This document shows, one piece after another, positions 2,478-34,190 of a stretch of DNA of 34,190 nt. The notes below the pieces were generated by a model. The model was not told the DNA's origin. It did not search any database and saw only the letters and a list, made by a program, of their open reading frames with translations. Position 1 is the first letter of the stretch. Each line of letters starts with the position of its first letter. The position numbers and the translations under genes are program-made. This DNA comes from Methanothrix sp. (lineage in GTDB: Archaea > Halobacteriota > Methanosarcinia > Methanotrichales > Methanotrichaceae), in NCBI GenBank assembly GCA_040770465.1, contig JAXGJB010000031.1, positions 1-34,190 on the forward strand, in the 5' to 3' direction.

Positions 2478-2662
2478 CGAGCACGCCTCCCGGCGGATAT
2501 GTTCGTCCTACTCTGCAAAAAAGGTTTGTGATGCTGCTGAAAGTCCAGCTGAGGTTCGAAGGAGATGCGACCTCTGAGGAGGAATCCGCAGGAATATGCA
2601 CGAGAAGAGGCGAGAACCTTCTCAAGGCCCTTGCTTTGCATCTGGATTTAAAAGAAAAGCAG

Positions 2663-2736: not shown

Positions 2737-2745
2737 AAAGTTAGG

Positions 2746-2819
2746 TGGGCTCGATGCGATTCGAACGCATGATCCCCGCCATGTCAAGGCGATGTCATAA
2801 CCAGCTAGACCACGAGCCC
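2746..2819 (-). tRNA. tRNA-Val (GAC)
   Basis: Reverse complement GGGCTCGTGGTCTAGCTGGTTATGACATCGCCTTGACATGGCGGGGATCATGCGTTCGAATCGCATCGAGCCCA; anticodon loop TTGACAT; 9 nt upstream of tRNA-Phe, probably dicistronic. Confidence 0.96.
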
Positions 2820-3046
2820 ACAGCTGACGGATGCTCCCAGCGACCTTTTCGAAGATAAACCCTTCGGTCTGAGATGCGGGAGGGGGCGACGTGGCTGAGC
2901 GAAAAGCCCTCCGGGACCGGGACCTGGCCTCGTCAAACACGCCGTTTTGCCTTCCGCCAAGCCTCATCTCCTGCCGCACGTTCCCCTCCCCTTCTCTCCC
3001 CGGCTCGTTTCTCTTCTCTCCGCCCAGCCACGAATCGCCAATCGCT

Positions 3047-6259: not shown

Positions 6260-6265
6260 CTCCGA

Positions 6266-7357
6266 TCACCTCCTCCTCGCTTCGATCTGCTTTGCCACCG
6301 ACGAGAAGAACCTCTCCTTGGTACAGAGGGGGCCGGGCCTCGCCTCGGGATGGTACTGGACCGCCTCCATCCCCAGGTAGTTGCTCTTGATCGCCTCCAC
6401 CGTCCCGTCGTTGGCGTTGACCTGGGTGATCTTGATGCCGGTACCCTCCGCCGACTCGGGACGGAGGGCGAAGTTGTGGTTCTGGGACGTGATGTAGACG
6501 ATCCCGCTTGCCAGGTCCTTAACAGGCTGGTTTCCGCCGTGGTGGCCGAACTTCAGCTTGTAGGTCTCAGCCCCCAGAGCGAGGCAGATCACCTGGAGAC
6601 CCAGGCATATCCCGAAGACCGGCTTCTCCCCTGCAAAGTGCTTGACCGCCTCGATGGCCCGAGTCGCCTGCTCCGGGTCACCGGGCCCGTTGGACAGGAA
6701 GATGGCGTCGGGGTCGAACTTCTCGATATCCGATACCCTCGAGTTTGATGGTACCACCACAATGTCGAACCCCTGACAGGCCATGGAGTTGATGATGTTC
6801 CTCTTGATCCCCAGGTCCATCATCACCACCTTCGGGCCGTCTCCTGGGATCCGATAGGGACGTTTGCAGGAGACGGCGCTTATCAGGTCGAGGCTCGATA
6901 TGTTCGGCTGGTCTCTTGCGAGGCCGACGACGTCCTGGTCGATCACATCGGGCCCCTCGCCGACGGCGAGTGCCGCCCTCATCGCCCCTTTGGTCCGGAT
7001 CTTGATGGTGAGCATCCTCGTATCGAGGCCGGAGATGCCGGGGACCCCCTCATCCTCCAGGAACTTCGATATGGTCCGGTTGGACCTGTGATGGAGGGGC
7101 CTGTCCCAGATCTCCTTGCAGATCATGGCGGTCGCACCGATGTGGTCTGACTGAAAGTTGTCGCCGCTGACACCGTAGTTTCCCATGAGGGGGTATGTGA
7201 ACATCAGAAGCTGCCCCGCATAGGAGGGATCGGTCATAGCCTCCTCATAGCCGGACATGACCGTCACAAAAACCAGTTCGCCAGAGACGACACCAGGCGC
7301 CCCGAAGCCCACCCCTTCGACCCTGGTGCCGTCCTCCAACCCTAAGACGCCGATCAT
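6266..7357 (-). CDS. carA: Carbamoyl-phosphate synthase small (glutaminase) subunit
   Basis: Motifs LEDGT, TDPSYAGQ, SNGPGDP, FGICLG (catalytic Cys), SQNHNF, QYHPE. Start moved to ATG 7357 (MIGVLGLEDG). Confidence 0.98.
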   Translation of the reverse strand: MIGVLGLEDGTRVEGVGFGAPGVVSGELVFVTVMSGYEEAMTDPSYAGQLLMFTYPLMGNYGVSGDNFQSDHIGATAMICKEIWDRPLHHRSNRTISKFLEDEGVPGISGLDTRMLTIKIRTKGAMRAALAVGEGPDVIDQDVVGLARDQPNISSLDLISAVSCKRPYRIPGDGPKVVMMDLGIKRNIINSMACQGFDIVVVPSNSRVSDIEKFDPDAIFLSNGPGDPEQATRAIEAVKHFAGEKPVFGICLGLQVICLALGAETYKLKFGHHGGNQPVKDLASGIVYITSQNHNFALRPESAEGTGIKITQVNANDGTVEAIKSNYLGMEAVQYHPEARPGPLCTKERFFSSVAKQIEARRR

Positions 7358-14742: not shown

Positions 14743-14786
14743 ATCACAAGGAACCTTTTTATTCGCTCATAATATTGCCCTCCCCC

Positions 14787-15455
14787 ATGATACTCGTCTA
14801 TTCCCTCGGCGGCTCCATCCTGGCGGGCCGCGATGCTGGAAGCCTCAAGGAGTACGCCACGGCTTTAAAGAGCCTCGCCCAAGAGCACCAGATCTTCGTG
14901 GTGGTGGGCGGGGGCAAGATCGCCCGAGAGTACATCGAGAAGGCCCGGGCCCTCGCGGCGAGCGAGGCCTTCTGCGACCTCCTCGGGATCGGGGCGACGA
15001 AGCTGAACGCCATGCTCCTGATTGCGGCCCTCGGCAGAGCCGCCGCCCCCGAGCCGGCCGAGAGCTACGCCGGCGCCCTTCTGGCCTCGGCGGGAGGAAA
15101 GATCGTCGTCCTCGGCGGGATGCAGCCGGGCCAGACCACCGACGCCGTCGCGGCCCTCCTCGCCGAGTACGTCCACGCCGACAAATTAATCGTGGCGACC
15201 TCCGTCGACGGCGTCTACTCCGCCGACCCAGGGATCGATCCGAAGGCGAAGAAGTACGAGAAGATGACCCACCAGGACCTGGTCCGCCTCTCGATGGAGA
15301 CGGAGATGAAGGCGGGGTCGCGCTCGCCCGTGGACCCCCTGGCGGCGAAGATCGTCGAGCGAAGCTCCATCCTTACCATCGTCGTCCACGGCGGGGAGGT
15401 CGAAAACCTGAAAAAAGCGGCCGACGGTGGCCATTCGGGAACTGAGATATACTGA
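14787..15455 (+). CDS. pyrH: Uridylate kinase (archaeal)
   Basis: MILVYSLGGS, VVVGGGKIAREY, PGQTTDAVAA, TSVDGVYSADP, VDPLAAKI. Start set at ATG 14787. Confidence 0.96.
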   Translation: MILVYSLGGSILAGRDAGSLKEYATALKSLAQEHQIFVVVGGGKIAREYIEKARALAASEAFCDLLGIGATKLNAMLLIAALGRAAAPEPAESYAGALLASAGGKIVVLGGMQPGQTTDAVAALLAEYVHADKLIVATSVDGVYSADPGIDPKAKKYEKMTHQDLVRLSMETEMKAGSRSPVDPLAAKIVERSSILTIVVHGGEVENLKKAADGGHSGTEIY

Positions 15456-15498
15456 AATCCTGAAGGGTGGGGGGGCTATGCCCCCGGAAACCTTCCAT

Positions 15499-16371
15499 CT
15501 AAAACCGGATCATGCAGCGGATGAGGTCGGTGGCTCCCAACATTCCGCTGGGAACATTGGAATCGAGGACGACGACCTGGCACGCCCCGGACTTCCCCAG
15601 TTCGCTTATGGCGACGTGAAGCGGATCGTCGGCGTTGACGGTGGGATACTCTCTTTCCATCGACTCCTCCACCGGCCGGTCTTCCTTCCCCTCGGCCACG
15701 CCCCTGATCACGTCCTCCATGCTTATGAGCCCCTTCAGATCACCGTTCTTTGCCACCAGGGCTGCCCTGACCTTCGAATCCGAGAGCTTCCGGCAAGCCT
15801 CCAAAAGCGACATTTCAGGGTCTATGGTGACGGCGGGCTTCGCCAGGTTCTTCACCGGGATCTTCGGTATCGAGGCCATCTCTTTTATGTCGAAAATCAG
15901 GCGGTTGGTGGTGTCGTCCCTCCCGGTCACCACACCCTTGATGGAGGTCTTGTTGACGGGGGTCGGCCCTATCTCGATCTCGTCGTCGATGTCAAACTCC
16001 CTGATGTTTCCGATTATCTGGACTATGCCGCTGCACTGGTTCGGCCTCATGACGGTGTAGAAGGTGATCTCGTTGGCGGTGGCCCCCTCAACGGGCGATC
16101 CGTTCCTCATCACCGGGACGTCCACCACCTCGTTGTCGGCGTCGAGGTTGATGGCGTCGTAAGCGGCGGCTATGGCCCGGTAGCCTCCCTTGGGGCCGGG
16201 AACTCCCTCCACCAGGTGGAGGGCCTTCAGAGACTGCATCTGGTTTCTGATGGTGCCGGGGTTTCGGTCGATGATCGAGGCGATCTCCTCGCCCTTTATG
16301 GCCCGGCCCTTCCGGCGTTGTAAATTTATCAGCGCGGTCAGAATCTCCCGCTGTATCTGTGTCAGTTCCAT
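15499..16371 (-). CDS. Archaeal transcriptional regulator with N-terminal wHTH and C-terminal CBS pair
   Basis: IKGEEIA..IDRNPGTIRNQMQSLKALHLVEGVPGPKGGY wHTH motif; C-terminal CBS-like repeats. Confidence 0.88.
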   Translation of the reverse strand: MELTQIQREILTALINLQRRKGRAIKGEEIASIIDRNPGTIRNQMQSLKALHLVEGVPGPKGGYRAIAAAYDAINLDADNEVVDVPVMRNGSPVEGATANEITFYTVMRPNQCSGIVQIIGNIREFDIDDEIEIGPTPVNKTSIKGVVTGRDDTTNRLIFDIKEMASIPKIPVKNLAKPAVTIDPEMSLLEACRKLSDSKVRAALVAKNGDLKGLISMEDVIRGVAEGKEDRPVEESMEREYPTVNADDPLHVAISELGKSGACQVVVLDSNVPSGMLGATDLIRCMIRF

Positions 16372-17555
16372 CCTTGATCGGGCGAATTTTCACGATTATC
16401 GGCTATATATACATGTTGATCTTTCGGCCGAAATCCGCGCGCAGGGCAGATTTTGCTGCCTTGGAAGGAAAGTTTCGCCATTCTTTTCCAGATTCGCTTG
16501 ACCGGCTCCTTCCGGACGTTTCCGACGGCCATGGGAAGGCAGGCGCAAGGATAGACGTCACCCTCGGGGGTGATGTGCATCCAGTTTCTCCCCGCAAAGC
16601 AGCCGAACTCCCGGAAGGCCGCCGGGACGGAGAAGATGCGAGGAGGCGGCGCCCCCGAGACGAACCTGTCGAGGGCCGCGTGATCCTCCTCCGACAGAAC
16701 CGACCCCAACTCTTCAGCCCACCTCCCCACGGGGACCACCTCGAAGAAGGTCAGCTCGTGAGCCCCGGCCGTGCGGGCGAGCCGATGAAACTCTTCGATC
16801 TCGGAGACGTTCTCCCGTCTCAGGACGGCGTAGATGTCCACCAGAAGTCCGGCGTCGAGGGCGTTCTCAACGGCCCTCATGGCGTCGCGGAAGGCGCCGA
16901 TCCTTCCCCTCATCCGGTCGTGCTCCGGCTCGGAGGCAGAGTCGAGGCTGACGTTGACGGCATAGAGCCCCGCATCCTTCAGGTCTCGGGCTAGCTTCGC
17001 CGAAAAACCCGCTCCCGATGTGAACATCGTTGAGATCGCCCGGTCGTCGACGGCCCTGACTAGGTCGGGAAGCTCCCGGTAGGTGGTGGGCTCCCCACCG
17101 TCGAAGATGACGAGGGTGGTTCCCAAATCCAGGACCTGGCCGATGACGTCCTCAACCTCGCCCGGCTCCAGACGGTGGTGGCGGCCCGAGTCTGGGAGGG
17201 CGCAGTGGAGGCAGCGGTTCGGGCACTCCTCGGTGATGGATATCGTCACCTGGTCGGGGGTCCTGATCCCGAAAGACGATTTGAGGTAGCTCTTCACCAG
17301 CCGGTCGAAAGCCCGGCTCGGAATGGGCGGAGACCAGGTTGATAGGATGAGCCCCTCCCCGGCCGCCACCGGGATCTGGCCCTCGGCCGCCCGGAGAGCC
17401 GACCGGACGAAGGGGAGATGGGCCAGGGGGCGCGAAGCCCTCAGCCTGACCCTTCCCTCTTCGACTGACCCGTCGACCCGGAGGAGGGGGCTATTTGCGA
17501 GGGTGTAACTGCCAGCTTCCCTCGCCTCTCTCGCTTCTCCCGCCGCCCTCTTCAC
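16362..17555 (-). CDS. Radical SAM protein with SPASM/Twitch domain
   Basis: CPNRCLHC (CxxxCxxC), [24 protein letters not shown]. Overlaps hisI and the CBS gene (operon-like). Confidence 0.9.
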
Positions 17556-19189: not shown

Positions 19190-19363
19190 GGGGAGTGGAG
19201 GAGGAAAGCCTTGATGGCAAAAGTTCACCCCCCGCGCCCGGGCGGCGCCGCCCAGCTCCTCCGGCTCTTATTTGGCCGGATCGCATCACAACTCCCGCCT
19301 TCACGGTGGCGTATTGAATTATTGGCGAAAGGTATATGACATTTGCAGGTCACGATGCTTACG

Positions 19364-19531
19364 ATGGCTTCCGTCAAGATTAGGCGAGATTCGGTCAAGA
19401 TTAGGCGAGATTCGGTTCGAGATGTCGATGCAGGCGAATCTGAGGCCGAGGAGCTGGACAGGCTCGCCCGAGAGACGAGGGAGAAGGGCATTTCGTGGAA
19501 GAGCCTCAAGGCAGAACTCAGATTAAACTAA
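19364..19531 (+). pseudogene. Small degenerate ORF, possible antitoxin remnant, at the island boundary
   Basis: MASVKIRRDSVKIRRDSVRDVDAGESEAEELDRLARETREKGISWKSLKAELRLN. TATA-like GTATATG about 30 bp upstream. Tail resembles the '(I/V)SWEELKxEL' ends of archaeal antitoxins (recalled). Contains a 21-bp duplication. Confidence 0.35.
19373..19414 (+). repeat. Perfect 21-bp tandem duplication
   Basis: GTCAAGATTAGGCGAGATTCG x2. Confidence 0.95.
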
Positions 19532-19554
19532 AAATCATTAGAAGGTAATGAAAA

Positions 19555-20625
19555 GTGTTTAAACTCAAGAAAATTATGGAAATTTCTGCAGAAGTTATCT
19601 CGGACGGATGCCTTGAAAATGGGGCGATTGTGGCAGCCAATACATTCAAGGATTATTATCCAGCTGATGCTAAACATTATTTCTATGTTTGGCCAAGGGA
19701 TGGTTCGTATGTATCTATTGCAGCTGACATCTTGGGACTAAATGATATTCAAGAAAATTTTTTTAATTGGTGTCTTAATAGAGCAGAAGGATTCTGGGAT
19801 TCAGGATTATTTTTTGAAAAGTATTATGTAAATGGACCAAAAGCCCTTGATAGATTCCAGCCTGACCAAACAGGATCTGTCCTATTCGCCTTATGGCATC
19901 ATTATAAGGACAACCTTGAAGATGCTCTGAAGTTCGAAGATCTGGTTAAAAAGGGCGCTGACGGGATCTCAAGCATTTGGAATGGAGAGTGCTTCGATCT
20001 AGTAGCTAATGATCTCTGGGAGGAGAGGCTGGCTTTCCCAGACCTTGCAGAGAACTTCACGTACTCCCTCGCAGCCTGCATAAAAGGACTGGATTGCGCA
20101 AGCGAAATGATCCCTGAAGATGCAAATAAGTGGAGAGAAGTGGCAAAAGAGATGAGATCGAAACTCGACACTCACTTTGTAGACGGCCATTTTGTTCGAT
20201 CTTTCGGCAAACTGATTGATCCGCGGATAGATGCCTCGGTTTTAGGCCTTGTCTACCCCTTTGAGATCTATGAAGCGGATGACCCCCGAATAATATCCAC
20301 CGTTACGGAAATTGAAAGATGCCTCGTCATTGGTGGCGGGGTGCATCGCTATCAACATGACGAGTATGATGGCTGGATGTTCGAAAGGATGCACCGAAGG
20401 AAGGGGGGTGGCAGCTGGCCGGTCCTCAACTTCTGGCTCTCGATATACTGGGCTAAAAGGGGTGAAACTGGGAGGGCGAGGTATTTTTATGATTGGGTTC
20501 TTGAAAGGTCAGATGGATATTTTCCAGAGCAGATCTTCAATAACGAAGTACAGGTCTCAGTATCACCATTACTATGGTCTCACGCAATGTTCATCATCGC
20601 CTCCAGTTTTTTGGGGCATTGTTGA
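19555..20625 (+). CDS. Glycoside hydrolase family 15 (glucoamylase/trehalase-like), catalytic domain only
   Basis: YVWPRDG, QPDQTG, DLWEE (acid), DASVLGL, RYQHDEY, FPEQI (base), SPLLWSHAMF; no signal peptide. Confidence 0.9.
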   Translation: MFKLKKIMEISAEVISDGCLENGAIVAANTFKDYYPADAKHYFYVWPRDGSYVSIAADILGLNDIQENFFNWCLNRAEGFWDSGLFFEKYYVNGPKALDRFQPDQTGSVLFALWHHYKDNLEDALKFEDLVKKGADGISSIWNGECFDLVANDLWEERLAFPDLAENFTYSLAACIKGLDCASEMIPEDANKWREVAKEMRSKLDTHFVDGHFVRSFGKLIDPRIDASVLGLVYPFEIYEADDPRIISTVTEIERCLVIGGGVHRYQHDEYDGWMFERMHRRKGGGSWPVLNFWLSIYWAKRGETGRARYFYDWVLERSDGYFPEQIFNNEVQVSVSPLLWSHAMFIIASSFLGHC

Positions 20626-20826
20626 AGTCGAGTTGTTTAATGCCGAAATATGTCGAATAATTAGGTACTTAGAAAAGAATCATAATACTTTTCGGTATTA
20701 TAAAAACTATTGAATTCTCATTAAATGCTAATCAGAGGACGTTACGCTAATCTCTTACCTAAACTTTGTAGCATAGCGATATTAAAGACCCAACTTAAGC
20801 GGGGAACAATAATTATTTATATGTTC

Positions 20827-20840
20827 ATGTTCATGAACAT
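20827..20840. promoter_or_regulatory. 14-bp perfect palindrome (candidate operator) between the TATA box and SD of the WD40::GH13 gene
   Basis: ATGTTCATGAACAT, immediately after TTATTTATAT and before GGAGG (20845-20849). Confidence 0.45.
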
Positions 20841-20855
20841 CCATGGAGGTTTCCG

Positions 20856-23642
20856 TTGATGAGGCAGCCATATCCCGTTCCCCCTGGGTTCGAGCTTAAA
20901 CGCAGTTTCCAAGGTCATAAGAATATTATAAACCATATAGAGTGGTTCAAAGATAGTTTAACACTTATTTCAACATCAGACGATTGTAGCATCAGACGTT
21001 GGGATGTGAAGAGCGACACTGAACTTCAGATGATAGAGGAACTCTCAAAAGTCAAATCCGCCGCAATAGTACCAGGAGGCAAACGAATTATCTCTGGATT
21101 GTCCGATCGAATGCTCAGAATATGGGATTTGGATAGCGGCAGACAAGAGGGGGGAGATATGATTGGTCACACAGGATGGGTTAATTCGGTGGCATTGCTG
21201 CAAGATGGCAAGAGGGCCATCTCTGCATCCGGTGACAATACCCTCAAAGTATGGGATATAACAAGAGAGCTAAATAAAGATAATAGACCATGTATAAAAA
21301 CACTTAATGGCCATGTAGGTTATGTTAACTCTGTAATTGTATTGCCGCACAACATTGCCTTATCTGCTTCGACTGATAAAACTGTGAGGTTTTGGGATCT
21401 TGATAAATATAAAGAAATTCGCGATCCTATAAAAAGCAATGCTCCAGTTTACTCATTAGCATTTTCTCCAGAAAGATGTATAATTGCCATCGGGTCCAGA
21501 AGTAATGTAATCAAAATATTTGATTGTAATACTGAAAAAATTTTCGAGCTATATTGTGCTAGTACATCAGAAGTTAGTTCGGTCTCGTTTTCGCATGGTG
21601 GTCAGTTGCTTGCCGCTAAATGTGGCGGCGACATAGTCCATTTGTGGAGGTGCGACAATTGGAAAGAAGTGGGATCGATAACCAACTCAAATTCTGATGC
21701 GAAATTCACACTATTCTCACATTTGGCTTTTCATCCAAAATACCCATTTTTAGCAACTCTAAGTAACCGTGATGAGGATTTCCGCATCTGCGTGTGGGAA
21801 TATGATAGCAATAAGATACTTGGTGGTATATCGAGTGGGAAACCTATCTCTCAGCTCCAGAATGTAGATGAACTAACATCGATTTCTGAGCTTGAGTTCG
21901 AGCCGAAAGGAGATGTCCACCCCTCTCCGAGCGATTGGAGAGACATTATTATATATTTTCTTTTGATAGATCGATTCGACAACGGAAGATCGGACATTCA
22001 CCCTTTCGTATCAGCCGATTGTTCGAAGGGATCCCATCCAGATCCCCAAAAATACAATCTGGATTCTGAACAGGGAAAGAAGTTCCAGGGTGGAAACCTC
22101 AGAGGCGTTACCAGGAGGCTGGACTATATAAAAAATCTCGGATGCAATGCAATATGGATCAGCCCAGTCTTCAAGAATCGGAAGGAGAAAGAAGACTATC
22201 ACGGTTATGGCATCCAAGATTTTCTCTCCGTGGATCCTCGCTTTGGAAACTTGGAAGAGCTAAAGCAGTTAGTACGGGAGGCCCATGAAAAGGGGATCTA
22301 TGTAATACTAGATGTAATAATCAATCACACAGGTGACAACTGGGCTTATCTAGGAGGGGGGGGGCTAAATAAAAAAAATATGATTTGGGGGGATGATAGC
22401 GATGATTGGCCTTTCAGGATCAACTGTCCCTACAGTTTTGGATACTGGAGACGTTTAGAATCCGCAACGACATTCGGCAAAGATGACGCTGTCTGGCCAA
22501 GAGAGCTTCAAAACCCTCATTACTATAAAAGGAGGGGAAAAATTCGGGATTTCGAAAAGGCAGGGCGGGAAGAGATCGAACAGGGTGACTTTTGTGGCTA
22601 CAAAAAACTGGATCTCGACAACCCCGAAGTGATGGATTGTCTCATAAATATTTATAAGTATTGGATCGCTGTTACCGATGTGGACGGCTTCCGTTTAGAC
22701 ACAGCCAAGCATTTAGGACCCGGTCCAACCGCACAGTTCTGCAACGCAATCAAAGAGTATTGTCGGCGGATTGGGAAGCACAACTTCTTGATCTTTGGGG
22801 AAGTTTCTGGGAGTGACGAGAATATAAGGAACTTTCTATGCCGGAATGTCCAGATATCTGGAACCGAAGATTGCCTTTTCTCGCTGGAGGCGGCACTGGA
22901 CTTTCCTCTCAGCGAGGCCTTAGAAAATGTATTCAAGAAGGGGTATGACCTTTCGCATCTGAGGGTGAGATACTCACTTTTGGAGGAATACTATCGCGAC
23001 CGTTGCTCCCCTGGCTCCCATCTGGTTACCTTCCTGGACAACCACGATCACACTGAGAGGTTCATTTATGGATTGGAATCCCAGGAGTTGGCCATGGCCG
23101 CCCTTGGATATTTGATCACCTCGCCAGGAATACCATCCCTCTACTACGGAACAGAACAAGGGTTTGATGGTCATGGAGATAAAGATCATTATGTAAGAGA
23201 GTGCATGTTCGGTGGAAACTGGGGGCCGTTTGGCACGAAAGAAAAGCACTTCTTTGATGAACGCAGCGAACTATATCAACATATTAAATCTATTATAAAA
23301 ATTCGGATGGCGCAGCCAGCTCTGCGATATGGACGAATGCGCTTCAGGGAGGTATCTGAAGACGGCATCTCGTTTGAATATCCTTATACAGTCAACCGAA
23401 TCCCCCTTATCGTCTTCTCTCGGCTGCTTGATAAAGATGAGCTCTTGGTGGCGATAAACCTGTCCTCTGTGGAGAAGAAGGTTTGGGTAGAGGTGGAGGA
23501 TGGGCTATATCATTCTGGGGGAGTGATGGTCAGCTTATTGGATGAGGGATTAAAACTCAAAGTTGAAAAAAAATCATTCCGTTACTGTATCGAACTCGCC
23601 ATCAAACCCTATAAATTATTAATATTGAAGAATGCATTCTGA
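20856..23642 (+). CDS. WD40 beta-propeller fused to a GH13 alpha-amylase-family catalytic domain
   Basis: Seven WD blades (ending RWD, IWD, VWD, FWD, IFD, LWR, VWE). Then IYFLLIDRF, GGNLRG, YHGYG, DVIINH, GFRLDTAKH, GEV, FLDNHD and GIPSLYYGTEQG. Single uninterrupted 928-aa ORF. Confidence 0.92.
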   Translation: MMRQPYPVPPGFELKRSFQGHKNIINHIEWFKDSLTLISTSDDCSIRRWDVKSDTELQMIEELSKVKSAAIVPGGKRIISGLSDRMLRIWDLDSGRQEGGDMIGHTGWVNSVALLQDGKRAISASGDNTLKVWDITRELNKDNRPCIKTLNGHVGYVNSVIVLPHNIALSASTDKTVRFWDLDKYKEIRDPIKSNAPVYSLAFSPERCIIAIGSRSNVIKIFDCNTEKIFELYCASTSEVSSVSFSHGGQLLAAKCGGDIVHLWRCDNWKEVGSITNSNSDAKFTLFSHLAFHPKYPFLATLSNRDEDFRICVWEYDSNKILGGISSGKPISQLQNVDELTSISELEFEPKGDVHPSPSDWRDIIIYFLLIDRFDNGRSDIHPFVSADCSKGSHPDPQKYNLDSEQGKKFQGGNLRGVTRRLDYIKNLGCNAIWISPVFKNRKEKEDYHGYGIQDFLSVDPRFGNLEELKQLVREAHEKGIYVILDVIINHTGDNWAYLGGGGLNKKNMIWGDDSDDWPFRINCPYSFGYWRRLESATTFGKDDAVWPRELQNPHYYKRRGKIRDFEKAGREEIEQGDFCGYKKLDLDNPEVMDCLINIYKYWIAVTDVDGFRLDTAKHLGPGPTAQFCNAIKEYCRRIGKHNFLIFGEVSGSDENIRNFLCRNVQISGTEDCLFSLEAALDFPLSEALENVFKKGYDLSHLRVRYSLLEEYYRDRCSPGSHLVTFLDNHDHTERFIYGLESQELAMAALGYLITSPGIPSLYYGTEQGFDGHGDKDHYVRECMFGGNWGPFGTKEKHFFDERSELYQHIKSIIKIRMAQPALRYGRMRFREVSEDGISFEYPYTVNRIPLIVFSRLLDKDELLVAINLSSVEKKVWVEVEDGLYHSGGVMVSLLDEGLKLKVEKKSFRYCIELAIKPYKLLILKNAF

Positions 23643-23706
23643 TGAAGAGACACGCATGATCTTGATTTCAGACCTATATGCATAATTGCTAAAGGGGTTT
23701 ACTAGA

Positions 23707-25188
23707 ATGCCGGAAATAGATGATACGACTGCGGTAAATAACAGCGTTATAGAGCGTTATTGCGAGGCCTTCCGCCTAATGCGGGTGAATAATTTAGACG
23801 ACGCTGCCACGAAGCTAAGGGAACTTAAAAAGTATGATAGAGAGTACCTCAACGCTCATCGATACCTGGGCATAATTTATATGCAACAGGGAGAGTTTAC
23901 TGATGCTATAAATGAGTTTGTTTTTATATTAAACAAGGACCAAAAAAAATTTCGCTCTTTAAAAGATCGTTGCAAAGATTCCTTCGATAAAGAGACTGAT
24001 CCCGATGGCCATATGGCATGGGTCCATCACGACCTAGGTAAGGCCCATCTGGAGTTGGGAGAATACAAAGATGCCATAAAATATATAAAAGAATCTATAA
24101 AAATCTTCGAAGCCGAACCCAAAAACTGGTTCATAAACGATCTAGGCTGGGCTTACTACAAATGCGGTAGGAACCATGAAGACCGTGGCGAAAAAGACGA
24201 GGCCCGCAAAAAATACAAAGAGGCTATAGAACAGTATAAGAAAGCAATCAAACTAGATCCCAAGGACGCTCATTCTCATTTCTTCCTCGGCCTCGCCTTG
24301 ATCAAGAACGGGCAGCTTAGTGATGCCGAAGAGGAGCTGAATGAAGCGAGCGACTGCTTTAAAGGGATACTTAGAAACGAAAAATTGAACCCCACAAATA
24401 AAGAAGCCTGGATCCAAGTTGAATTGAAGCTCGCCTCCACTAAGAACAACTTAGGCAGGATTCAGATGGAAAAGGGAAGTTACGACGATGCTAAGGATCT
24501 ATTTCTGGATGCATTAAAAATATGCTTGAATAAAGAGTGCCAAGAATATATCGAAAAACTCACGCCCTGGGGGAAGAGAAAGGAGCAGAGGATCATCGCC
24601 GCACTTCATACCAATATGGGATTATTATATTATAAACGGGGATCGTTAGATGAGGCACGAAAGGAGTATATGGAAGCCTTAACGATGGCAGAGCTGCCGG
24701 AGACCTATAATAATTTGGCAGCTATATCCAACAAAGAGGGTGCAAAGGAGAATGCTGAGTTTCATCTCAATAACGCTCTCCGCGTTAATCCCCGATTTAA
24801 GCCGGCATTAACCAACCTGGAAAAACTTACGAGAGGGACTACCAACTGGTGTGACTGGTGGTTTGAACCCATCCAGTCCGAATCATCTGGGAAGTTTGCT
24901 TCCCTTAAATGCAAATATCACCGCAAATGGATCTTAGGATCTTTGCTGGTATTCACCCTGATTCTATTGGTTGCCGATATGCTGATCGCCTCCTTTTCAG
25001 GAATGGTCACAATCACAAGCTTTGAAACGGGACCTAGCCTAAGGGATAAGATGCTTTTAGCTTCTCTGATATTCTTCCTACTGGTCCACCCCCGGATCGA
25101 AGCCTTTGCTCTCGGAGAGGTGAAGTTTAACATGGCTACAGAGGTTGCTTCATCATCCCTCCGAAGCGAAGGATCAACCTCTGAATGA
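23707..25188 (+). CDS. TPR-repeat protein with C-terminal transmembrane helices
   Basis: Multiple TPRs (HDLGKAHLELGEYKDAI, AIKLDPKDAHSHFFLG, NNLGRIQMEKG, TYNNLA), WCDWWF, then two hydrophobic segments. Start set at ATG 23707 (alternative TTG 23686). Confidence 0.88.
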   Translation: MPEIDDTTAVNNSVIERYCEAFRLMRVNNLDDAATKLRELKKYDREYLNAHRYLGIIYMQQGEFTDAINEFVFILNKDQKKFRSLKDRCKDSFDKETDPDGHMAWVHHDLGKAHLELGEYKDAIKYIKESIKIFEAEPKNWFINDLGWAYYKCGRNHEDRGEKDEARKKYKEAIEQYKKAIKLDPKDAHSHFFLGLALIKNGQLSDAEEELNEASDCFKGILRNEKLNPTNKEAWIQVELKLASTKNNLGRIQMEKGSYDDAKDLFLDALKICLNKECQEYIEKLTPWGKRKEQRIIAALHTNMGLLYYKRGSLDEARKEYMEALTMAELPETYNNLAAISNKEGAKENAEFHLNNALRVNPRFKPALTNLEKLTRGTTNWCDWWFEPIQSESSGKFASLKCKYHRKWILGSLLVFTLILLVADMLIASFSGMVTITSFETGPSLRDKMLLASLIFFLLVHPRIEAFALGEVKFNMATEVASSSLRSEGSTSE

Positions 25189-25454
25189 TCCGTTATGTCC
25201 CAGTTATCCATTTTAAGTAGATCCCTATTAGTCCCATCTCTAAAGACCGTTTCTTGAAACTGTCTGGCGGGTCTTCGATACGAATGAAATCGTTTGGGTT
25301 TTCCTAACTTTGGCCTTATTTTTTTATGTAGGGTGCTAGTTGGAAAAACATCATTTTTCATCTCTTTATATCGCTCCCCCTTCACCAAAAAGCGTATATC
25401 TCAGCGCCACTATAATAATGAGTTCGACCGATAAAAAAGAGGTGACAGATTATC

Positions 25455-27891: not shown

Positions 27892-28767
27892 TTGGCAGAG
27901 CACATACTGGAGATGGCCGGAGCCCTGGTGAGGGTGAGGGACGGAGAGATCGAGGTCCTCTCAGACCCCAAGGTGAAATGGTGCCCCCTGCGAAGCGGCC
28001 TCTACGGGCACGAGGCCGAGTCCAGGAAGACCGTCGAGTCGGTCCTGCGAGGCCACATCGAAGAGCTGGGGATGTACGGTCCAGATCGCGTCCTGGAGCT
28101 CTCCGAGCGGCCGGTCAGCTTCGGAGCCTCCGAGATGATCGCCGACGGGATGAAGGGTGGGCTCGTCGACGCGGCCGTCGTCGTCTGCGAGGGGGCGGGG
28201 ACGGTCGTCGCCGCGAGGCCCGAGGTCGTGGCCGCCCTCGGCGCCCACATGACCGGCCTCGTCAGGACCGAGCCGATCGAGGAGATACAGTCCGGCCTCC
28301 GGGAGCGCGGATGCATCCTCCTCGACGACCGGTGCACCATCGATCAGGTGGAGGGTTACCGGAGGGCCCTTGCCGCCGGATACCAGCGGATCGTCGTCAC
28401 CATCACTGGAAAGAGGGCCTTCGAGGCCGAGGAGATCAGAAAGCTGGCTTCAGCCTCGGCTTGTGGACAGGCGGCCGAGGAACCGGTGATATTCGCGGTC
28501 CACAACCTCGACGTCGCCGAGGATCAGGCGGAGGTCCTGGCCGAAACTTGCGACGTCGTCTGGGGTTGCGCCTCGCGGCCGGTCCGTGACGTTGTGGGAC
28601 GGCGGGCGAAGCTCCAGATCGGGATCTCGATACCCGTCTACGCCCTCACCGATCGGGGAAAGCGGCTGGTACTAAACCGGGCTCAGCATTTTGACGAGAG
28701 CCTGGTGATGCACAGGGCGACGCTCCCTTACGGGCCGGAAGAGAAGCTGCCAACGCTTCTGGACTGA
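27892..28767 (+). CDS. Methanogenesis marker 8 (DUF2099) family protein
   Basis: HILEMAG..VRVRDG..P.VKWCPL, VSFGASE, DAAVVVCEGAGTV, M.GLVRTEPI, CAS motifs. Confidence 0.78.
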   Translation: MAEHILEMAGALVRVRDGEIEVLSDPKVKWCPLRSGLYGHEAESRKTVESVLRGHIEELGMYGPDRVLELSERPVSFGASEMIADGMKGGLVDAAVVVCEGAGTVVAARPEVVAALGAHMTGLVRTEPIEEIQSGLRERGCILLDDRCTIDQVEGYRRALAAGYQRIVVTITGKRAFEAEEIRKLASASACGQAAEEPVIFAVHNLDVAEDQAEVLAETCDVVWGCASRPVRDVVGRRAKLQIGISIPVYALTDRGKRLVLNRAQHFDESLVMHRATLPYGPEEKLPTLLD

Positions 28768-28812
28768 ATATCAAAAAGAATCAGAACATCGGACGGGTGG
28801 GGGGTTGGAGGT

Positions 28813-29889
28813 CTACCCGATCCTCTCGACCTTCAGCCCCCCGTTGTCGACTTTTGTAGATATCGCGATCTTCAGCCCCATCGGCTCCAGGATCTCGGCC
28901 ATCTCCGCCTCGTTCCGACTGGTGACGACGGCGATCGACGGCCCCACGGAGCTCATCCCCACGAACTCGAGCCCCGCCTCCCGGAGGCGGCTCATGTGCT
29001 CGTAGATCTCAAAGCCATGGTGCTCGACCTCGGCCCGCTTCGAGCCCCGGAACTCGATCTCCCAGATGACGTCCCCGATCTTTTTGAGGTCGCCCCGCTC
29101 CAGGGCGGGGATCAGGTCCATGAGGATGAAGTAGGCTTTCAGCTCCCTGTCCTGGTAGTCGAGGGTTCGGGCCCTGTTCATCAGGAGGTCGAACTCCTCC
29201 CTCCCCGACGAGGAGACGGTCGTCTCGGGGATAATGACGAAGACGTTCTTTCCCTCGGCGAAGGGGTGGTGGTAGGCGAGAGAGAGCTCGTCGCCGGTCA
29301 CCGCCATCCCGCCGTAGGTGACGGCGGCGGGGCCGACCCCGGTCTCAAATCCCAGGGTGACCCGGCCGTCCTCGGTCTCCTCGACGTAGTTGTTCCCGAT
29401 CAACAGCCTGATCTCGTCTTTTGTAAGGTTGGAGCCGACGGCCTCGTTCATGGCGGTGGCGAGGGCCACCAGGACCGAGCCGGTGGAGCCGAGGCCGACG
29501 TGCTTTTGCTCGTGATCCCGGACCTTTATCTTGAAGCCGCCGGAGTAGCCGGTCGTCTCCTTGAAGACCTCGACGAAATGGCGGACGATTGGCTCTCTCG
29601 AATAGTCGACGACCAAATCTTTGGGCGTGCACTCAACCTCGGCGAAGCAATAGATCTGGAGGGCGAAGCCGACCCCGCCGCCGCCGGGCCTGTTGGGCGC
29701 AAACCGGTTCATGTCCAGGACGGTGAGGTGGATCCTCCCCGGGGTTGTGACCCTCACCTTTTCCTTGATCGGCTCAAGCTTCCCGTCCTTTTTGATCCCC
29801 AGAGTGTTGATCTTCTCGCCGGGAGAGAAGGGGCTGAACTCGTACTCCACCAGGTCCAGGTCCCCGCCCCGGATCTTCATCGTCGGCAT
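28813..29889 (-). CDS. GHMP-superfamily protein, beta-RFAP synthase (MptG)-like
   Basis: TPGRIHL..LD, GGVGF, HVGLGS.G, GMSSVGP. Confidence 0.8.
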   Translation of the reverse strand: MPTMKIRGGDLDLVEYEFSPFSPGEKINTLGIKKDGKLEPIKEKVRVTTPGRIHLTVLDMNRFAPNRPGGGGVGFALQIYCFAEVECTPKDLVVDYSREPIVRHFVEVFKETTGYSGGFKIKVRDHEQKHVGLGSTGSVLVALATAMNEAVGSNLTKDEIRLLIGNNYVEETEDGRVTLGFETGVGPAAVTYGGMAVTGDELSLAYHHPFAEGKNVFVIIPETTVSSSGREEFDLLMNRARTLDYQDRELKAYFILMDLIPALERGDLKKIGDVIWEIEFRGSKRAEVEHHGFEIYEHMSRLREAGLEFVGMSSVGPSIAVVTSRNEAEMAEILEPMGLKIAISTKVDNGGLKVERIG

Positions 29890-30050
29890 CTTTCACCACC
29901 ATCCGAAATGAAATAGCATGGTCCTCTCTGGCTATATCTCGTTGCCGGAGATCTCGCCTTGCGCCGGGGCGAGAGCGTGGGAGCTTCCACCCCGGCGACC
30001 GCCGATCCGAGAGGCGAGGCTACAGGCGAGGTGACAAGCAAGGCGACAGG

Positions 30051-31481
30051 CTACTTTTCTTTGCCTCCGACCGAGATGATCGAAGAGGGGTCCGGCGGCT
30101 TCGTCGCGAGGCTTGCCGCGATGTACACCGCCGCTCCGACGACGATCCCGACCATAACCGGGTGGATGAGGGGGTTGCCGTAGAAGTTCCAGGCGACGAT
30201 GGAGACGAAGGTGGCAACAAGGCCCGTAACAAAGCCCGTCGATGTCCCCCGGTCCCAGTAGAGGCCGAATAAGAGGGGGATGAAGACGCAGCAGGCGATG
30301 ACGCCCATGCTGAGGGAGACGAGCGGCACGATCAGCTCCGGGACGTTTCTTGCCATCAGGGCGGAGACGGCGATGATCAGGACTCCCACAACCCTGGTCA
30401 GGACCAGGACCCGGTCGTCGGGGATCTCGGGGCGGAGGAACCTGAGGGTGTCGGCGGTGAGGGACGTCGTCGTGACGAGGACGATGGCGCTGATCGTCGA
30501 CATCGCCGCCGAGATCGCCGCGAGGAGGATGATGGCGTCAAACCCGGGCGGGAGAAGCGACGTGGCGACGAAGGGTACGAAGCTGTCGGGGTTTTTGATG
30601 AACGGCGCCAGCTCCTCGGCGGAAAAGACCCCGTACGCCAGAATCCCTATCGAGAAGATGCAGAGGGCGTAGATGGCGATCGCAATCGGGCTGTAGATCC
30701 CGGCGAACTTGACCACCCTTTTGTCCCGCGCCGAGAAGATCATGATCAGAAGGTCGGGGAGCGCCAATAGGCCCAGGCTTATGGAGAAGGCCGTTCCCAC
30801 CGTCTTCTGCCAGGGGACGAGGTCGCCGGACATGCTCGTCACCGCGGCGGGGATGTTCGCCCAGATCTCGGTCCCCCCGCCGTTGTAGAGGAGGGCGGCG
30901 TAGAGGATGATCGCCCCGCCGACCATGATGATTCCCTGGATGAAGCTGATCCAGAGGATGGCGGGAAGGCCCCCCACGGCGTAGTAGATGGCGACGATGA
31001 CGACGGCCACGAGAAGCCCCTGGATGTACGTGATCCCGAGGAGCCCCTCAAAGAGGTGGGCGCAGCCCTTGAAGATGGCGATGAGGTAGACGGTGTACAT
31101 GACCAGCATGATCCCCGCGAGAAGCACCCGCCCGCCCGGAGAGCCGTACCTTCGTTCCAGAAGCTGGGGGATGGTCTTGGCGTCGTAGGACTTGGCCATC
31201 GACCAGATCCGCGGCGCCATGATCCAGGCGAGGCAGGCGAAGGCGACGTGCATCAGGGTCGCCCAGATCACCCAGGGGAAGCCGGCGATGAGGCCGTACC
31301 CGCCGCCGCCGAGAAACGAGGCCGCGCTGAAGTAGGCGGCGGTGAAGGCGATCCCGATGACGGCGGGGTACATCACATTTCGATCGGAGACGACGAAGCC
31401 CGAGAAGGTCCCCTGCCGGAGCTTTATGGAGAGGGCGACGATGACCGCGACGTAGACGACGAGGAGGACCTGGTTAATCAT
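30051..31481 (-). CDS. Sodium:solute symporter (SSS) family transporter
   Basis: About 13 TM segments; YFSAASFLG, TIPQLLERRYGS, SAAMSTIS, PLLFGLYW. Confidence 0.92.
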   Translation of the reverse strand: MINQVLLVVYVAVIVALSIKLRQGTFSGFVVSDRNVMYPAVIGIAFTAAYFSAASFLGGGGYGLIAGFPWVIWATLMHVAFACLAWIMAPRIWSMAKSYDAKTIPQLLERRYGSPGGRVLLAGIMLVMYTVYLIAIFKGCAHLFEGLLGITYIQGLLVAVVIVAIYYAVGGLPAILWISFIQGIIMVGGAIILYAALLYNGGGTEIWANIPAAVTSMSGDLVPWQKTVGTAFSISLGLLALPDLLIMIFSARDKRVVKFAGIYSPIAIAIYALCIFSIGILAYGVFSAEELAPFIKNPDSFVPFVATSLLPPGFDAIILLAAISAAMSTISAIVLVTTTSLTADTLRFLRPEIPDDRVLVLTRVVGVLIIAVSALMARNVPELIVPLVSLSMGVIACCVFIPLLFGLYWDRGTSTGFVTGLVATFVSIVAWNFYGNPLIHPVMVGIVVGAAVYIAASLATKPPDPSSIISVGGKEK

Positions 31482-31572
31482 CGGATCTCCTCAGAATCAC
31501 AAAGAAGGTGATCGCGAGCATGAGTATCATCGAGGCCAGAAGGGCCAGGTACGGCGTCGGCGCGAGGAACAT
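31474..31572 (-). CDS. 32-aa single-TM protein translationally coupled to the SSS transporter
   Basis: MFLAPTPYLALLASMILMLAITFFVILRRSDD; GGAGG upstream; stop overlaps the transporter start. Confidence 0.7.
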   Translation of the reverse strand: MFLAPTPYLALLASMILMLAITFFVILRRSDD

Positions 31573-31742
31573 CAGGTCCGCCTCCGCGTCGGTGAATCGT
31601 GAGCGTTTGAGTGCGTCGGTGCAAGGTCTCTTGGATTCAAATCGATCTCTCCTCCAATCATGTACGATAATATACAATGATGGGCAGTGGAGGGCGATTT
31701 TGGTTGAAAAGGGTTTCGCTGACCGCGCTATTCAGCACGTAT

Positions 31743-32792
31743 CTAAATTAAAATCTTTTTATATCTCCCAGGATAGTCGCAATAGTTATTTTCGAATAAT
31801 AATCCTGTTTTGAAATAACACATCGCGCGACAACCACCATGGCATATTTGACCTTTATCACACCTCCTACAATCCCCTGTTAACATGCTAACATCAAATT
31901 GCCTATTATATGCAAAATTACCTTCTTTGGACCAGATATCTTCTAAGGGCTCTTCTCTCAGATTTCCCTCGATAAAATCGTTGGAATAGAGAGATATGCA
32001 TCCTTTAACATTTCCAACGCTATCTATTCCCACGATCTTGAGCCCAGCTTGGCATCCATTCCATGCAGAAATTGCTCCAGGCAAGCTCCTCAAATATGGC
32101 TCATTTTCATCGTAATAACCAATATTATCAGCTGCATATATAGCGATACGGTGCTCTTTGCGTCTATTTTTGATAAAATCTGTAATTATAGATAATTTAG
32201 ACGGGTTTAATAGAAGTTCATTTAATTTGGCCATATTACCCATAGGGGTAGCAATCTGAAGTTGCCAGACTGAAATTCGATTCTCTACAAGGAGATCGTA
32301 CATTGGTTCCAAATCAGCGACGTTGGAATTCAGAATACATGTAACAACTGCAATTGAAATTTCCGACCTTCGAAGTAATTCAAAAGCTTGGAGAACTCTT
32401 CCAAATGATTTTTTGGAGTTTCGGATCTTGTTATGGTTTTCTTCCATTCCATCAACAGAAATACCCACATTGTTCAATCTAGCATATTCAATTTGATCTA
32501 TTTGTTCGTCTCCTAAGATATAGGCATTGGTTATGATATTAACTACAGCTCCACCCTCGGATAGTTTTCTAGCGATCTTTTCCCATCCTTTATACAGAGT
32601 AATTTCCCCACCAATTAAAGTGACCCGCTTGCAGCCAAGATCGAGAAGCTGATCCGCTATATTTAAGCACTCATCGACAGATAGTTCATTTTTTCTGGCG
32701 TTGCCAGCTATAGAGCCACAATGAGTACACTGAAGATTACATTTTAATGTAAGCTCCCATACACATTTTTCGGGTGTATATGCGTCATTCAC
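31743..32792 (-). CDS. Radical SAM/SPASM peptide maturase, PlpX (splicease)-like
   Basis: VWELTLKCNLQCTHCGS, IGGE, WQLQIA.PMGN, ADNIGYY and a full SPASM motif (CQAG...GNVKGC...CRRCx5Cx3C...C). AT-rich. Confidence 0.85.
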   Translation of the reverse strand: MNDAYTPEKCVWELTLKCNLQCTHCGSIAGNARKNELSVDECLNIADQLLDLGCKRVTLIGGEITLYKGWEKIARKLSEGGAVVNIITNAYILGDEQIDQIEYARLNNVGISVDGMEENHNKIRNSKKSFGRVLQAFELLRRSEISIAVVTCILNSNVADLEPMYDLLVENRISVWQLQIATPMGNMAKLNELLLNPSKLSIITDFIKNRRKEHRIAIYAADNIGYYDENEPYLRSLPGAISAWNGCQAGLKIVGIDSVGNVKGCISLYSNDFIEGNLREEPLEDIWSKEGNFAYNRQFDVSMLTGDCRRCDKGQICHGGCRAMCYFKTGLLFENNYCDYPGRYKKILI

Positions 32793-32865
32793 TGTTAATG
32801 TCCCCTTATCAACGCCACCTTTAAACCTTTAAATAGCGTAGGACCAAACTACGAGATTTAGTGGA

Positions 32866-33222
32866 TTATTTCAAATTTGGCTTATCTGAATGTGGGGTTG
32901 GCTTGTCTGGATGTGGGGTTGGCTCGTATGGAGCAGGTGTGTCTGGAACTGCATACATCGAATATCCAGGATTGGGTTGAACTATAATGTAATCAGGTGG
33001 TGTTATTTCAAAGTCTACCTCTATTTTCTTTTTTTGTTCTTCCGTAAAGTACATTTTCTTTGATTGAGGATCGCGTTCGAGTTCTGACTTGGAAGTTAGT
33101 GTCTCCGCTTTGCTAAAAGGCATCTCTAATCTTTCGCAATCTACTCCTATAGAATCCTTAACAATTTTTTTCTGGGCATCTGTCAGATTTAGGCCAAACG
33201 CTTTTTTTTTGTTGTTTATCAT
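32866..33222 (-). CDS. Putative RiPP precursor/substrate protein
   Basis: 118 aa, 73 bp upstream of the rSAM on the same strand. Duplicated LTDAQKKIV / FTEEQKKKI motif; Tyr/Pro-rich tail PGYSMYAVPD...PTPHPDKPTPHSDK. TATA-like box about 25 bp upstream. Confidence 0.6.
   Translation of the reverse strand: MINNKKKAFGLNLTDAQKKIVKDSIGVDCERLEMPFSKAETLTSKSELERDPQSKKMYFTEEQKKKIEVDFEITPPDYIIVQPNPGYSMYAVPDTPAPYEPTPHPDKPTPHSDKPNLK
32877..32918 (-). repeat. 21-bp tandem repeat (PTPHxDK x2) in the precursor tail
   Basis: TTGGCTTATCTGAATGTGGGG / TTGGCTTGTCTGGATGTGGGG, plus a partial third unit. Confidence 0.85.
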
Positions 33223-33373
33223 GATCTCTTATTCCGTTTAAAACTATTTAACTCTTATGGCCCATAATTCAAAGTGTATAATCCAGAAACCATTGACAAT
33301 ATATGCTCAACAATCCTTCAAAATAGATATGTATATATATCATAGGTTCAACCTAGGTTTCAAGGTGACTTCG

Positions 33374-33700
33374 ATGAGTGAAGATATCCCGAAAATAACC
33401 CAAGTAAGTCAAAAAATCTCTGCCCTTAAAGTTGTTGATTATGGAATAGGTGAAGAGGGCAATTTGTTGATAGATTTGAGGACAGAGGCTAGATCCAAAT
33501 CTACGGAGATCACAGCAGATCTCGATAAAATTTTTTCAGCCACGATCAAGGAAGAGAAAGGTAAAATACAGCTGGAGAGCTTAAATGCGTCTATACCAAT
33601 CACGAACAACGGACAGAACATCGGCAAAGTCGAAATTGAGTCCAAACCTGGTGATACGCGCATAAAGGTGAGCTTAAATGCGAATGCGCTGAAAGGGTGA
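33374..33700 (+). CDS. Hypothetical 108-aa protein divergent from the precursor gene
   Basis: ATG 33374 with GGTGA SD and TATATATAT box at about 33332-33340; AT-rich like the rSAM pair. Confidence 0.7.
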   Translation: MSEDIPKITQVSQKISALKVVDYGIGEEGNLLIDLRTEARSKSTEITADLDKIFSATIKEEKGKIQLESLNASIPITNNGQNIGKVEIESKPGDTRIKVSLNANALKG

Positions 33701-33841
33701 GTTCTCCGCAATCTTTCAGCTATATTTTTAACGAATACGCCACAGCTCTGCAGCGGGCGCGTCGCTGCCAGTTTGACTTGCGATCATATCTTACTGAGTA
33801 AGATGGCTCCAAATACCGGCTTTTCAACTGTCTGTCCCGCC

Positions 33842-34190
<349 letters not shown>

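Follow-up and report, generated by a model that had tools for sequence, protein, structure and literature searches.

The systems closest to the one described here are built around tyramine spliceases, radical S-adenosylmethionine (SAM) enzymes with a SPASM domain, of which PlpX is the prototype (PMC11002830). The papers named in this text are each cited for individual passages. Those of PMC11414181 describe excision of a tyramine equivalent at X-Y-G sites and distinguish the cyanobacterial type I enzymes, which require a Y protein, from systems found later in diverse bacteria that have none. In the binary system RhaXA the leader helix is predicted to occupy the Y-binding site of the enzyme, and according to the same passages there was no experimental splicease structure at that time (PMC11414181). 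LYG and MYG sites are spliced with a loss of 135.06 Da, giving products that inhibit proteases (PMC11626197). The passages of PMC10533398 count 27 characterised and 939 predicted systems, YG-rich neighbours are recorded from 189 bacterial genera in PMC10849128, and an earlier survey referred to in PMC11626197 placed spliceotide clusters in both bacterial and archaeal genomes.

Here, a gene pair resembling these systems is described in a stretch of 34,190 nucleotides from Methanothrix sp. (GenBank assembly GCA_040770465.1, contig JAXGJB010000031.1, positions 1 to 34,190 of the forward strand), which is referred to as the window. The pair consists of an open reading frame (ORF) for a 118-amino acid (aa) protein, the putative substrate or 'A' protein (window 32866–33222, minus strand), and an ORF with a GTG start for a 349-aa splicease-like radical SAM/SPASM maturase, the 'X' protein (31743–32792), that begins 73 bases downstream on the same strand. 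A sequence-only reading, made without database searches, had proposed that the two form an archaeal splicease-type system. The analysis presented here suggests that the cassette is probably a binary splicease-type modification system, lacking a recognition element for ribosomally synthesised and post-translationally modified peptides (RiPP recognition element, RRE), in which excision of tyramine at Tyr90 of the 118-aa protein is the most likely reaction.

The radical SAM/SPASM enzyme

Pfam models matched the enzyme at residues 13–168 (Radical_SAM, E 5.1e-25) and 247–312 (SPASM, E 2.2e-7). The CxxxCxxC motif of the radical SAM cluster (C18/C22/C25; 32718–32741, minus strand) falls on invariant alignment columns, and the SPASM region (31779–32054, minus strand) contains seven conserved cysteines (C247, C265, C308, C311, C317, C321 and C338) that are invariant or nearly so in an alignment of 36 sequences. 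The radical SAM motif and complete SPASM domain recognised from the letters alone are confirmed by these matches, and the four stretches picked out with them (VWELTLKCN, WQLQIATPMGN, DNIGYY and GCQAG..GIDSVGNVKGC) are all present, their core residues occupying invariant or nearly invariant columns of the same alignment. The enzyme retains every invariant column of its clade. A sequence search of the PDB with the enzyme returned only SkfB (6efn) and PqqE (6c8v), and no splicease structure.

When the enzyme was compared with the NCBIfam models, TIGR03913 (named 'GDL motif peptide-associated maturase', 242.6 bits) and TIGR04103 ('nif11-class peptide radical SAM maturase 3', 242.1 bits) came out on top, followed by TIGR04133 (rSAM_w_lipo, 170.6 bits). 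The two splicease models are more than 70 bits ahead of TIGR04133 and more than 110 bits ahead of other families. The curated cut-offs are 591.75 bits for TIGR03913, 725 for TIGR04103 and 425 for TIGR04133, so the enzyme is a relative of these three families and not a member of any of them. The placement in a PlpX/TIGR03913/TIGR04133-like clade, offered in the sequence-only reading, holds as far as the ranking of the models is concerned but not as membership. PlpX and PcpX are presumably members of TIGR04103.

The enzyme also gave weak matches to models of cofactor-biosynthesis enzymes (NirJ 131, AhbD 130, MftC 110 and PqqE 100 bits), as would be expected if it were one of these (AhbC/D, NirJ, PqqE or MftC) and lay beside an unrelated small ORF by chance. 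The scores for these families, 93–131 bits in all, are however far below their own cut-offs (265–650 bits) and far below those of the splicease models, and no cofactor-pathway genes adjoin the enzyme gene. A tree of 67 rows was built after fragments of less than 300 aa and exact duplicates had been dropped, using three radical SAM/SPASM paralogs from the host genome as the outgroup. These paralogs, the closest in the genome, are 26–29% identical to the enzyme (the next-best 28%). The window enzyme fell within a clade of 13 enzymes with 100/100 support, nested in an ingroup of 64 rows that was split from the three paralogs at 100/100. Clustering with cofactor enzymes, the outcome that the sequence-only reading had set against its own proposal, was thus not seen.

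The protein collection contained 1566 relatives of the enzyme at E ≤ 0.001, the best 120 of which were 60–71% identical (100% for its own protein). The named sources among these best 120 were Theionarchaea, Methanosarcina, Clostridia and Hodarchaeota, and the clade therefore crosses domains. A search of genome contigs with the enzyme alone gave just two weak, unrelated loci (L009 and L010). Within the phylum the gene was found in 5 of 401 genomes (G000 included), comprising none of the two from the same genus, one of 12 from the same family and three of 52 from a second family, and this patchy occurrence is unlike that of a core cofactor gene.

The substrate family and the candidate tyrosine site

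The surroundings of the enzyme gene were compared in the best 80 of 315 metagenome relatives (among 589 pattern matches) and four genome loci. The gene was found at 49% identity or more in 17 of these loci, two of which (L077 and L080) begin inside it and have no upstream DNA. In each of the other 15, a small ORF bearing Tyr sites lies upstream on the same strand. Eleven of the 15 have two-module homologs of the 118-aa protein, 90–135 aa in length, with two copies each in L012 and L013, while the remaining four (L011 and L092–L094) have a 43–52-aa ORF with two X-Y-G sites, e.g. LYGVVRPLYGVP. A profile made from 13 upstream ORFs of the enzyme homologs, with the window left out, detected the 118-aa ORF (E=1.9e-15) as the sole significant match among 616 six-frame ORFs. 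The co-occurrence of the two genes, which had been suggested as a check, is borne out by these loci, and it also counts against a cofactor enzyme beside an unrelated ORF, a reading that is disfavoured and appears extremely unlikely. No consistent accessory gene was found beside the relatives in the fetched loci; a DUF2117 gene and a cation-efflux gene are neighbours in L011, and L015 has an ABC transporter on the opposite strand.

The tree is consistent with this pairing. Every one of the 13 enzymes in the clade is paired with a two-module or short-YG ORF, and the rows nearest to the window enzyme are the short-YG group (99/93) and L091, which comes from a methanogen belonging to the family of the host. 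Other clades of the ingroup adjoin unrelated X-Y-G precursors, for example an MYG peptide from the gut, peptides in which a GG leader precedes KYG/LYG repeats, and NHLP-like precursors with AYG/VYG. Across 68 non-redundant loci the density of YG was 5.63 per 1000 aa in near same-strand small ORFs, which were present within narrow limits in 29 of the 68, and 1.40 per 1000 aa in other small ORFs.

When the 118-aa protein was used by itself in a word-based search, nothing but its own entry came back, and the family to which it belongs surfaced only after the neighbours of the enzyme homologs had been aligned. Profile searches then recovered 38 proteins from a word-indexed collection, none of which has a Pfam domain or a name beyond 'hypothetical', and 167 representatives at E ≤ 0.001 (74 at E ≤ 1e-10) from a library clustered at 50%. 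The family spans archaea and bacteria, and no consistent match was found when 69 of its members were compared with Pfam and NCBIfam. In some members (P0159, P0160 and P0175) the architecture is doubled to four modules, giving proteins of 189–203 aa.

The 118-aa protein contains two similar motifs, LNLTDAQKKIVKD at residues 11–23 and MYFTEEQKKKIEV at residues 57–69. In the AlphaFold2 model (mean predicted local distance difference test score, pLDDT, 74.5; predicted template modelling score 0.57), each motif supplies the helix of a strand-helix-strand module. Module 1 spans residues 8–35 (33118–33201, minus strand; strand 8–12, helix 15–25 with the sequence TDAQKKIVKDS, strand 31–35; pLDDT 91–94 over residues 11–30), and module 2 spans residues 55–81 (32980–33060, minus strand; strand 55–58, helix 61–71 with the sequence EEQKKKIEVDF, strand 78–81; pLDDT 89–93 over residues 51–80). 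Disorder is confined to the loop that follows module 1 and the tail that follows module 2, where the model has low confidence and pLDDT drops below 50 at residues 91–97. The earlier description of a duplicated leader-like motif followed by a disordered tail was accurate as to the two motifs and the tail, but the motifs are better seen as helices within two predicted beta-alpha-beta modules, with a flexible Tyr site after each module. A Foldseek comparison of the model with the PDB gave no match at E ≤ 0.001 among 12 weak rows.

Family members have one conserved Cys per module, and methanogen SPASM enzymes can install thioethers on proteins, the precedent being CrpC/CrpA of Methanococcus voltae in the cited passages of PMC13692751. 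Cross-linking of the sactionine or ranthionine type on a substrate Cys was therefore considered, and the enzyme does match the sactipeptide maturase models StsB (93 bits, cut-off 625), SkfB (88 bits, cut-off 300) and AlbA (60 bits, cut-off 850) weakly. These scores are far under those of the splicease models. The module-2 Cys is lost from the window protein, leaving a single Cys at a predicted strand edge, and no RRE was found here whereas a section heading of the CrpC paper names a predicted RRE (PMC13692751). Thioether formation is accordingly very unlikely.

The tail of the 118-aa protein reads Y87-S-M-Y90-A-V-P93. Its candidate modification site, referred to as site 2, is M89-Y90-A91-V92-P93 (32944–32958, minus strand) in the flexible tail, and aligns with RYGVP, KYAIP, LYMAP and MYGMP in homologs. 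The conserved core of the family sites is [R/K/L/M]-Tyr-x-[V/I/M]-Pro, where Gly after Tyr is preferred but not required, and M-Y-A-V-P matches four of the five consensus positions. The family sites resemble the known splicease core peptides PIRP-L/G-YGLPI (PMC10533398). The suggestion that M-Y-A is a non-canonical site agrees with its alignment to X-Y-G, X-Y-A and X-Y-M sites. The alternative suggestion of a YxxY cross-link was rejected, because the column containing Y87 is not conserved in either of the substrate alignments. In appearance P0266 comes closest to the window protein: site 1 is missing from it too, the 'GYIIV' strand is shared, and EYGIP-TYGMP-LYGMP stands at the aligned place.

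If the known binary systems are a guide, the 349-aa enzyme, with one SAM-cleaving cluster and two auxiliary clusters, would dock on the folded substrate through one or both beta-alpha-beta modules, whose helices may act as the activating leader helix does in those systems. The flexible segment after the module would be threaded into the active site, where the 5'-deoxyadenosyl radical would begin the chemistry at the tyrosine within [R/K/L/M]-Tyr-x-[V/I]-Pro, presumably Tyr90 in the window protein. Most likely a tyramine equivalent (C8H9NO, minus 135.07 Da) would be cut out and the backbone joined again, leaving an alpha-keto-beta-amino (ketoamide) residue derived from Met89. Prediction of a complex from the enzyme and substrate alignments gave scores of 0.57, 0.48 and 0.50 (median 0.50), compared with 0.01 for the best of three controls, with a contact agreement of at least 68% between runs and a partner pLDDT of at least 60. 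This was classed as weak support. Of 80 solved complexes 58 reach the mark, as do two of 110 mismatched pairs; with a score of 0.60 or less, those that reach it are only seven of the 80 solved complexes but both of the mismatches that pass.

Several observations weigh against tyramine excision. The sites of characterised spliceases are all X-Y-G in the cited passages (PMC11414181, PMC11626197, PMC9811515), while the window protein has no Y-G at all, its site being M-Y-A, and so falls outside the X-Y-G description of a spliceotide precursor. To the shortfall of the enzyme against the curated cut-offs is added that none of 46 related locus enzymes passes that of TIGR03913 or TIGR04103, so the tree contains no experimentally characterised splicease. 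In the 184 family proteins used for site counts (P0121–P0304, window included), site 1 is Tyr in 111, followed by G in 60, M in 15, A in 12, R in 8, K in 7 and another residue in 9. Site 2 is Tyr in 85 (76 are gapped there), followed by G in 54, A in 11, M in 7, R in 4 and another residue in 9. At least one YG is present in 91 of the 184 proteins and none in the other 93. In a hand-picked subfamily alignment of 69 rows (63 family proteins, five locus ORFs and the window protein), site 1 is Tyr in at least 90% of the sequences, but the window protein has Ser44 there and has also lost the module-2 Cys. Finally, a separate subfamily has S-Y-K-I-P or S-Y-R-V-P and no YG, and its enzymes (L017 and L018) are 49% identical to that of the window. 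One subfamily of about 100–105 aa, with S-Y-K-I-P or M-Y-R-Q-P and no YG, ends in K-S-G-A-I-x-F.

The same pair could instead carry out another reaction on the conserved Tyr, such as a C-C or C-O cross-link, beta-carbon modification or epimerisation, in which no tyramine is excised. The variable residue after Tyr, the 93 proteins with no YG and the S-Y-K-I-P subfamily are in keeping with this, as is the distance of the enzyme from the two splicease equivalogs, whose C-terminal 70–120 residues it lacks (it matches positions 15–354 of 477 and 6–343 of 412 in the models). On the other hand, the nearest sister enzymes (65–66% identity) pair with short peptides whose only common feature is X-Y-G-V/M-V/P, YG dipeptides are enriched nearly four-fold in the substrate family (172 in the 184 proteins, compared with 46 ± 6.4 after shuffling), and no further family model scores near the two splicease models. 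We regard a different tyrosine chemistry as unlikely, though it has more in its favour than the other alternatives.

It may also be that the substrate has decayed, so that the 118-aa protein is no longer processed and the intact enzyme belongs to a remnant cassette or acts on something else. The loss of the highly conserved site-1 Tyr, of the module-2 Cys and of YG would fit with this, as would a recent 21-nt tandem duplication (90% identical copies, 32877–32918) at the 3' end of the precursor gene, which encodes a PTPH(P/S)DK repeat in the proline-rich tail. However, the reading frame is uninterrupted, pLDDT is 89–94 in both predicted modules and the M-Y-A-V-P site is largely of consensus type. 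The 69 hand-picked rows include 19, the window among them, that likewise have no YG yet mostly retain both tyrosines. The enzyme keeps the invariant columns of its clade, contigs from RNA libraries cover the precursor gene (see below), and no second member of the substrate family was found in the host genome. Decay of the substrate is thus improbable, and tyramine excision at Tyr90 remains the preferred reading.

A variable insertion beside ribC

The cassette is carried on an AT-rich islet of about 2.1 kb (about 31724–33847), delimited by low GC content, a break in homology and a contig from a DNA run. The GC content is 0.39–0.44 across 32001–34000, as against 0.62–0.65 across 28001–31000. In a genome of the same genus (G303), homology to the window stops at about 31721 and restarts in ribC at about 33840. 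One contig from DNA run X1, possibly the run from which the window derives, joins position 31723 to 33848, skipping 2124 bases, possibly with other letters in between, and its depth is 17.7 compared with 5.3 for the contigs of the islet. At the same place, between a beta-RFAP-synthase-like gene and ribC, G303 has a different AT-rich insert of 4 kb (L108, G303:C1:301000–308000, 2104–5802) with genes for the two components of a Gabija defence system, GajA (728.6 bits) and GajB (808 bits). A third kind of AT-rich insert is found at this locus in G243, also of the same genus (L109, G243:C12:52800–61000, 1207–6477), and encodes a 1470-aa SdrD_B/VWA protein and a 269-aa ORF with no family match. No direct or inverted repeats, tRNA or integrase were found at the ends of the islet. 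The differing inserts and the contig that skips the islet identify a variable hotspot between the symporter/beta-RFAP-synthase-like gene and ribC, in which the islet is a strain-variable insertion, and the cassette is a horizontally acquired, strain-level gain.

The genes flanking the islet are those for an archaeal riboflavin synthase (ribC), a beta-RFAP-synthase-family protein and a sodium/solute symporter. McrA (942.8 bits, above its cut-off) is encoded elsewhere in the host genome, and together with these flanks supports the GC-rich methanogen backbone that had been described. The symporter gene (30051–31481, minus strand) is missing from the corresponding place in G303, where no more than about 160 bases separate the beta-RFAP-synthase-like gene from a segment matching window 31496–31721. 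In G358 the symporter match and the beta-RFAP-synthase-like match are on separate contigs.

The islet had been described as an AT-rich two-gene unit. The coordinates and fall in GC content were correct, but it also holds a third, divergent ORF (33257–33700, plus strand) of 147 aa, or 108 aa if begun at the ATG at 33374. This orphan has no match to a Pfam, NCBIfam or PADLOC family and no usable match in the protein Atlas, and was not found in any of the four other genomes that carry the enzyme gene; it does not count as a conserved component of the cassette. A V-D-Y-G-I-G stretch occurs in its translation. Two metatranscriptome libraries of one study yielded contigs identical to the window that extend over 32731–33201 (the precursor gene together with the first part of the enzyme gene) and 33379–33806 (the orphan ORF), where carry-over of DNA is possible; the absence of such a contig over the body of the enzyme gene (31743–32730) says nothing about its expression.

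Pfam and NCBIfam scans found no RRE/PqqD-like gene or domain in the islet or in the enzyme, and no protease or exporter adjoining the gene pair. This agrees with the sequence-only reading, the neighbours being the symporter, the riboflavin synthase and the orphan ORF. As binary systems with no Y protein are described (PMC11414181), the lack of a Y or RRE partner is normal for that type. PADLOC found no defence family for the 118-aa protein or the orphan ORF, and only generic viperin-type radical SAM matches of at most 69 bits for the enzyme.

Elsewhere in the window, a second AT-rich stretch (19300–25200, GC 0.41–0.46) carries genes for a 356-aa oligosaccharide-amylase-like protein, a 928-aa alpha-amylase-family protein and a 500-aa tetratricopeptide repeat (TPR) protein. 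A 907-aa TPR protein (12019–14742, plus strand), for which the best NCBIfam match is the cyclophane-RiPP TPR protein HaaT (307.9 bits, cut-off 1125), lies 1.6 kb from a second radical SAM/SPASM-like gene (16362–17555, minus strand) that is NirJ2/AhbD-like (115–119 bits). The pair (12019–17555) is possibly another peptide-modification locus. A tRNA-Phe(gaa) gene adjoins one for tRNA-Val(gac) at 2662–2819 (minus strand), distant from the islet.

Scope and comparison with known systems

To our knowledge, tyramine splicing is the only cellular route to beta-amino ketoamide residues in ribosomal products, and it is under development as a tool for protein engineering. By analogy with published spliceotides, the product of the cassette could be a protease-inhibiting ketoamide. 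As the hotspot holds a Gabija system in a sister genome, a ketoamide-bearing protein might be a protease-inhibiting and possibly an antiviral effector. A broader reading, which we put forward tentatively and hold to be less likely than not to apply in full, is that small folded tandem-module proteins, and not leader peptides, are the substrates of a clade of minimal splicease-like enzymes (about 350 aa) that crosses domains and accepts A, M, K or R after Tyr, yielding ketoamide proteins that may inhibit proteases or be antiviral. If so, the sequence scope of backbone splicing, or of some related radical reaction directed at Tyr, would be far wider than the X-Y-G rule.

In the unannotated substrate family, Tyr is followed at natural sites by Ala, Met, Lys or Arg, and each site has a compact module that is predicted to fold. 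If processing does take place there, splicing obeys a broader sequence rule than X-Y-G, the modules would be usable as portable docking domains and the cassette provides archaea with a concrete example that can be cloned. If it does not, the family illustrates decay of a substrate while the enzyme is retained.

No description of a methanogen splicease was found in the literature searched, from which the survey of Scott et al. 2022 (Chem) was absent. The claim that an archaeal version is undescribed agrees with this, but is weakened by the archaeal spliceotide clusters of the earlier survey (PMC11626197). Because the enzyme lies outside the curated splicease equivalogs and its own substrate has no X-Y-G, the cassette is classed as a probable variant of the binary splicease system.

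The AhbD/NirJ enzymes of the heme pathway in archaea share the radical SAM and SPASM architecture, and related paralogs are present in the same genome, but these form the outgroup of the tree and the window enzyme has no cofactor genes beside it. CrpC/CrpA of Methanococcus voltae is alike in pairing a methanogen SPASM radical SAM enzyme with a protein-sized substrate encoded alongside (PMC13692751). CrpA is cysteine-rich and acquires ranthionine cross-links, and CrpC has a predicted RRE (PMC13692751), whereas the window substrate has one Cys and Tyr sites, and the best models for its enzyme are those of splicease families.

The type I systems of Pleurocapsa (PlpXY/PlpA and PcpXY/PcpA) are also based on a radical SAM/SPASM enzyme, belong with the models that match the window enzyme best, and have the precursor gene directly upstream of the enzyme gene. 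The Tyr site again lies in a proline-rich, hydrophobic context, the PlpA tag being PIRP-L-YG-LPI. The window differs in the score of its enzyme (242 bits against cut-offs of 725 and 591.75) and in its length (349 aa, where the models span 412 and 477), and in having no Y/RRE protein. Its substrate is a two-module folded protein with Ala after Tyr and not a Nif11/NHLP leader peptide.

The type II systems of Rheinheimera (RhaX/RhaA, and also RasX and RcsX) likewise have one enzyme gene, one substrate gene and no Y protein, with a substrate helix proposed as the element that binds the enzyme and activates it (PMC11414181). This likeness is one of description and not of sequence comparison, and RhaA, RasA and RcsA carry LYG or MYG (PMC11626197) where the window protein has MYA. 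The substrate family found here differs further in its two tandem modules, each with its own helix and its own site.

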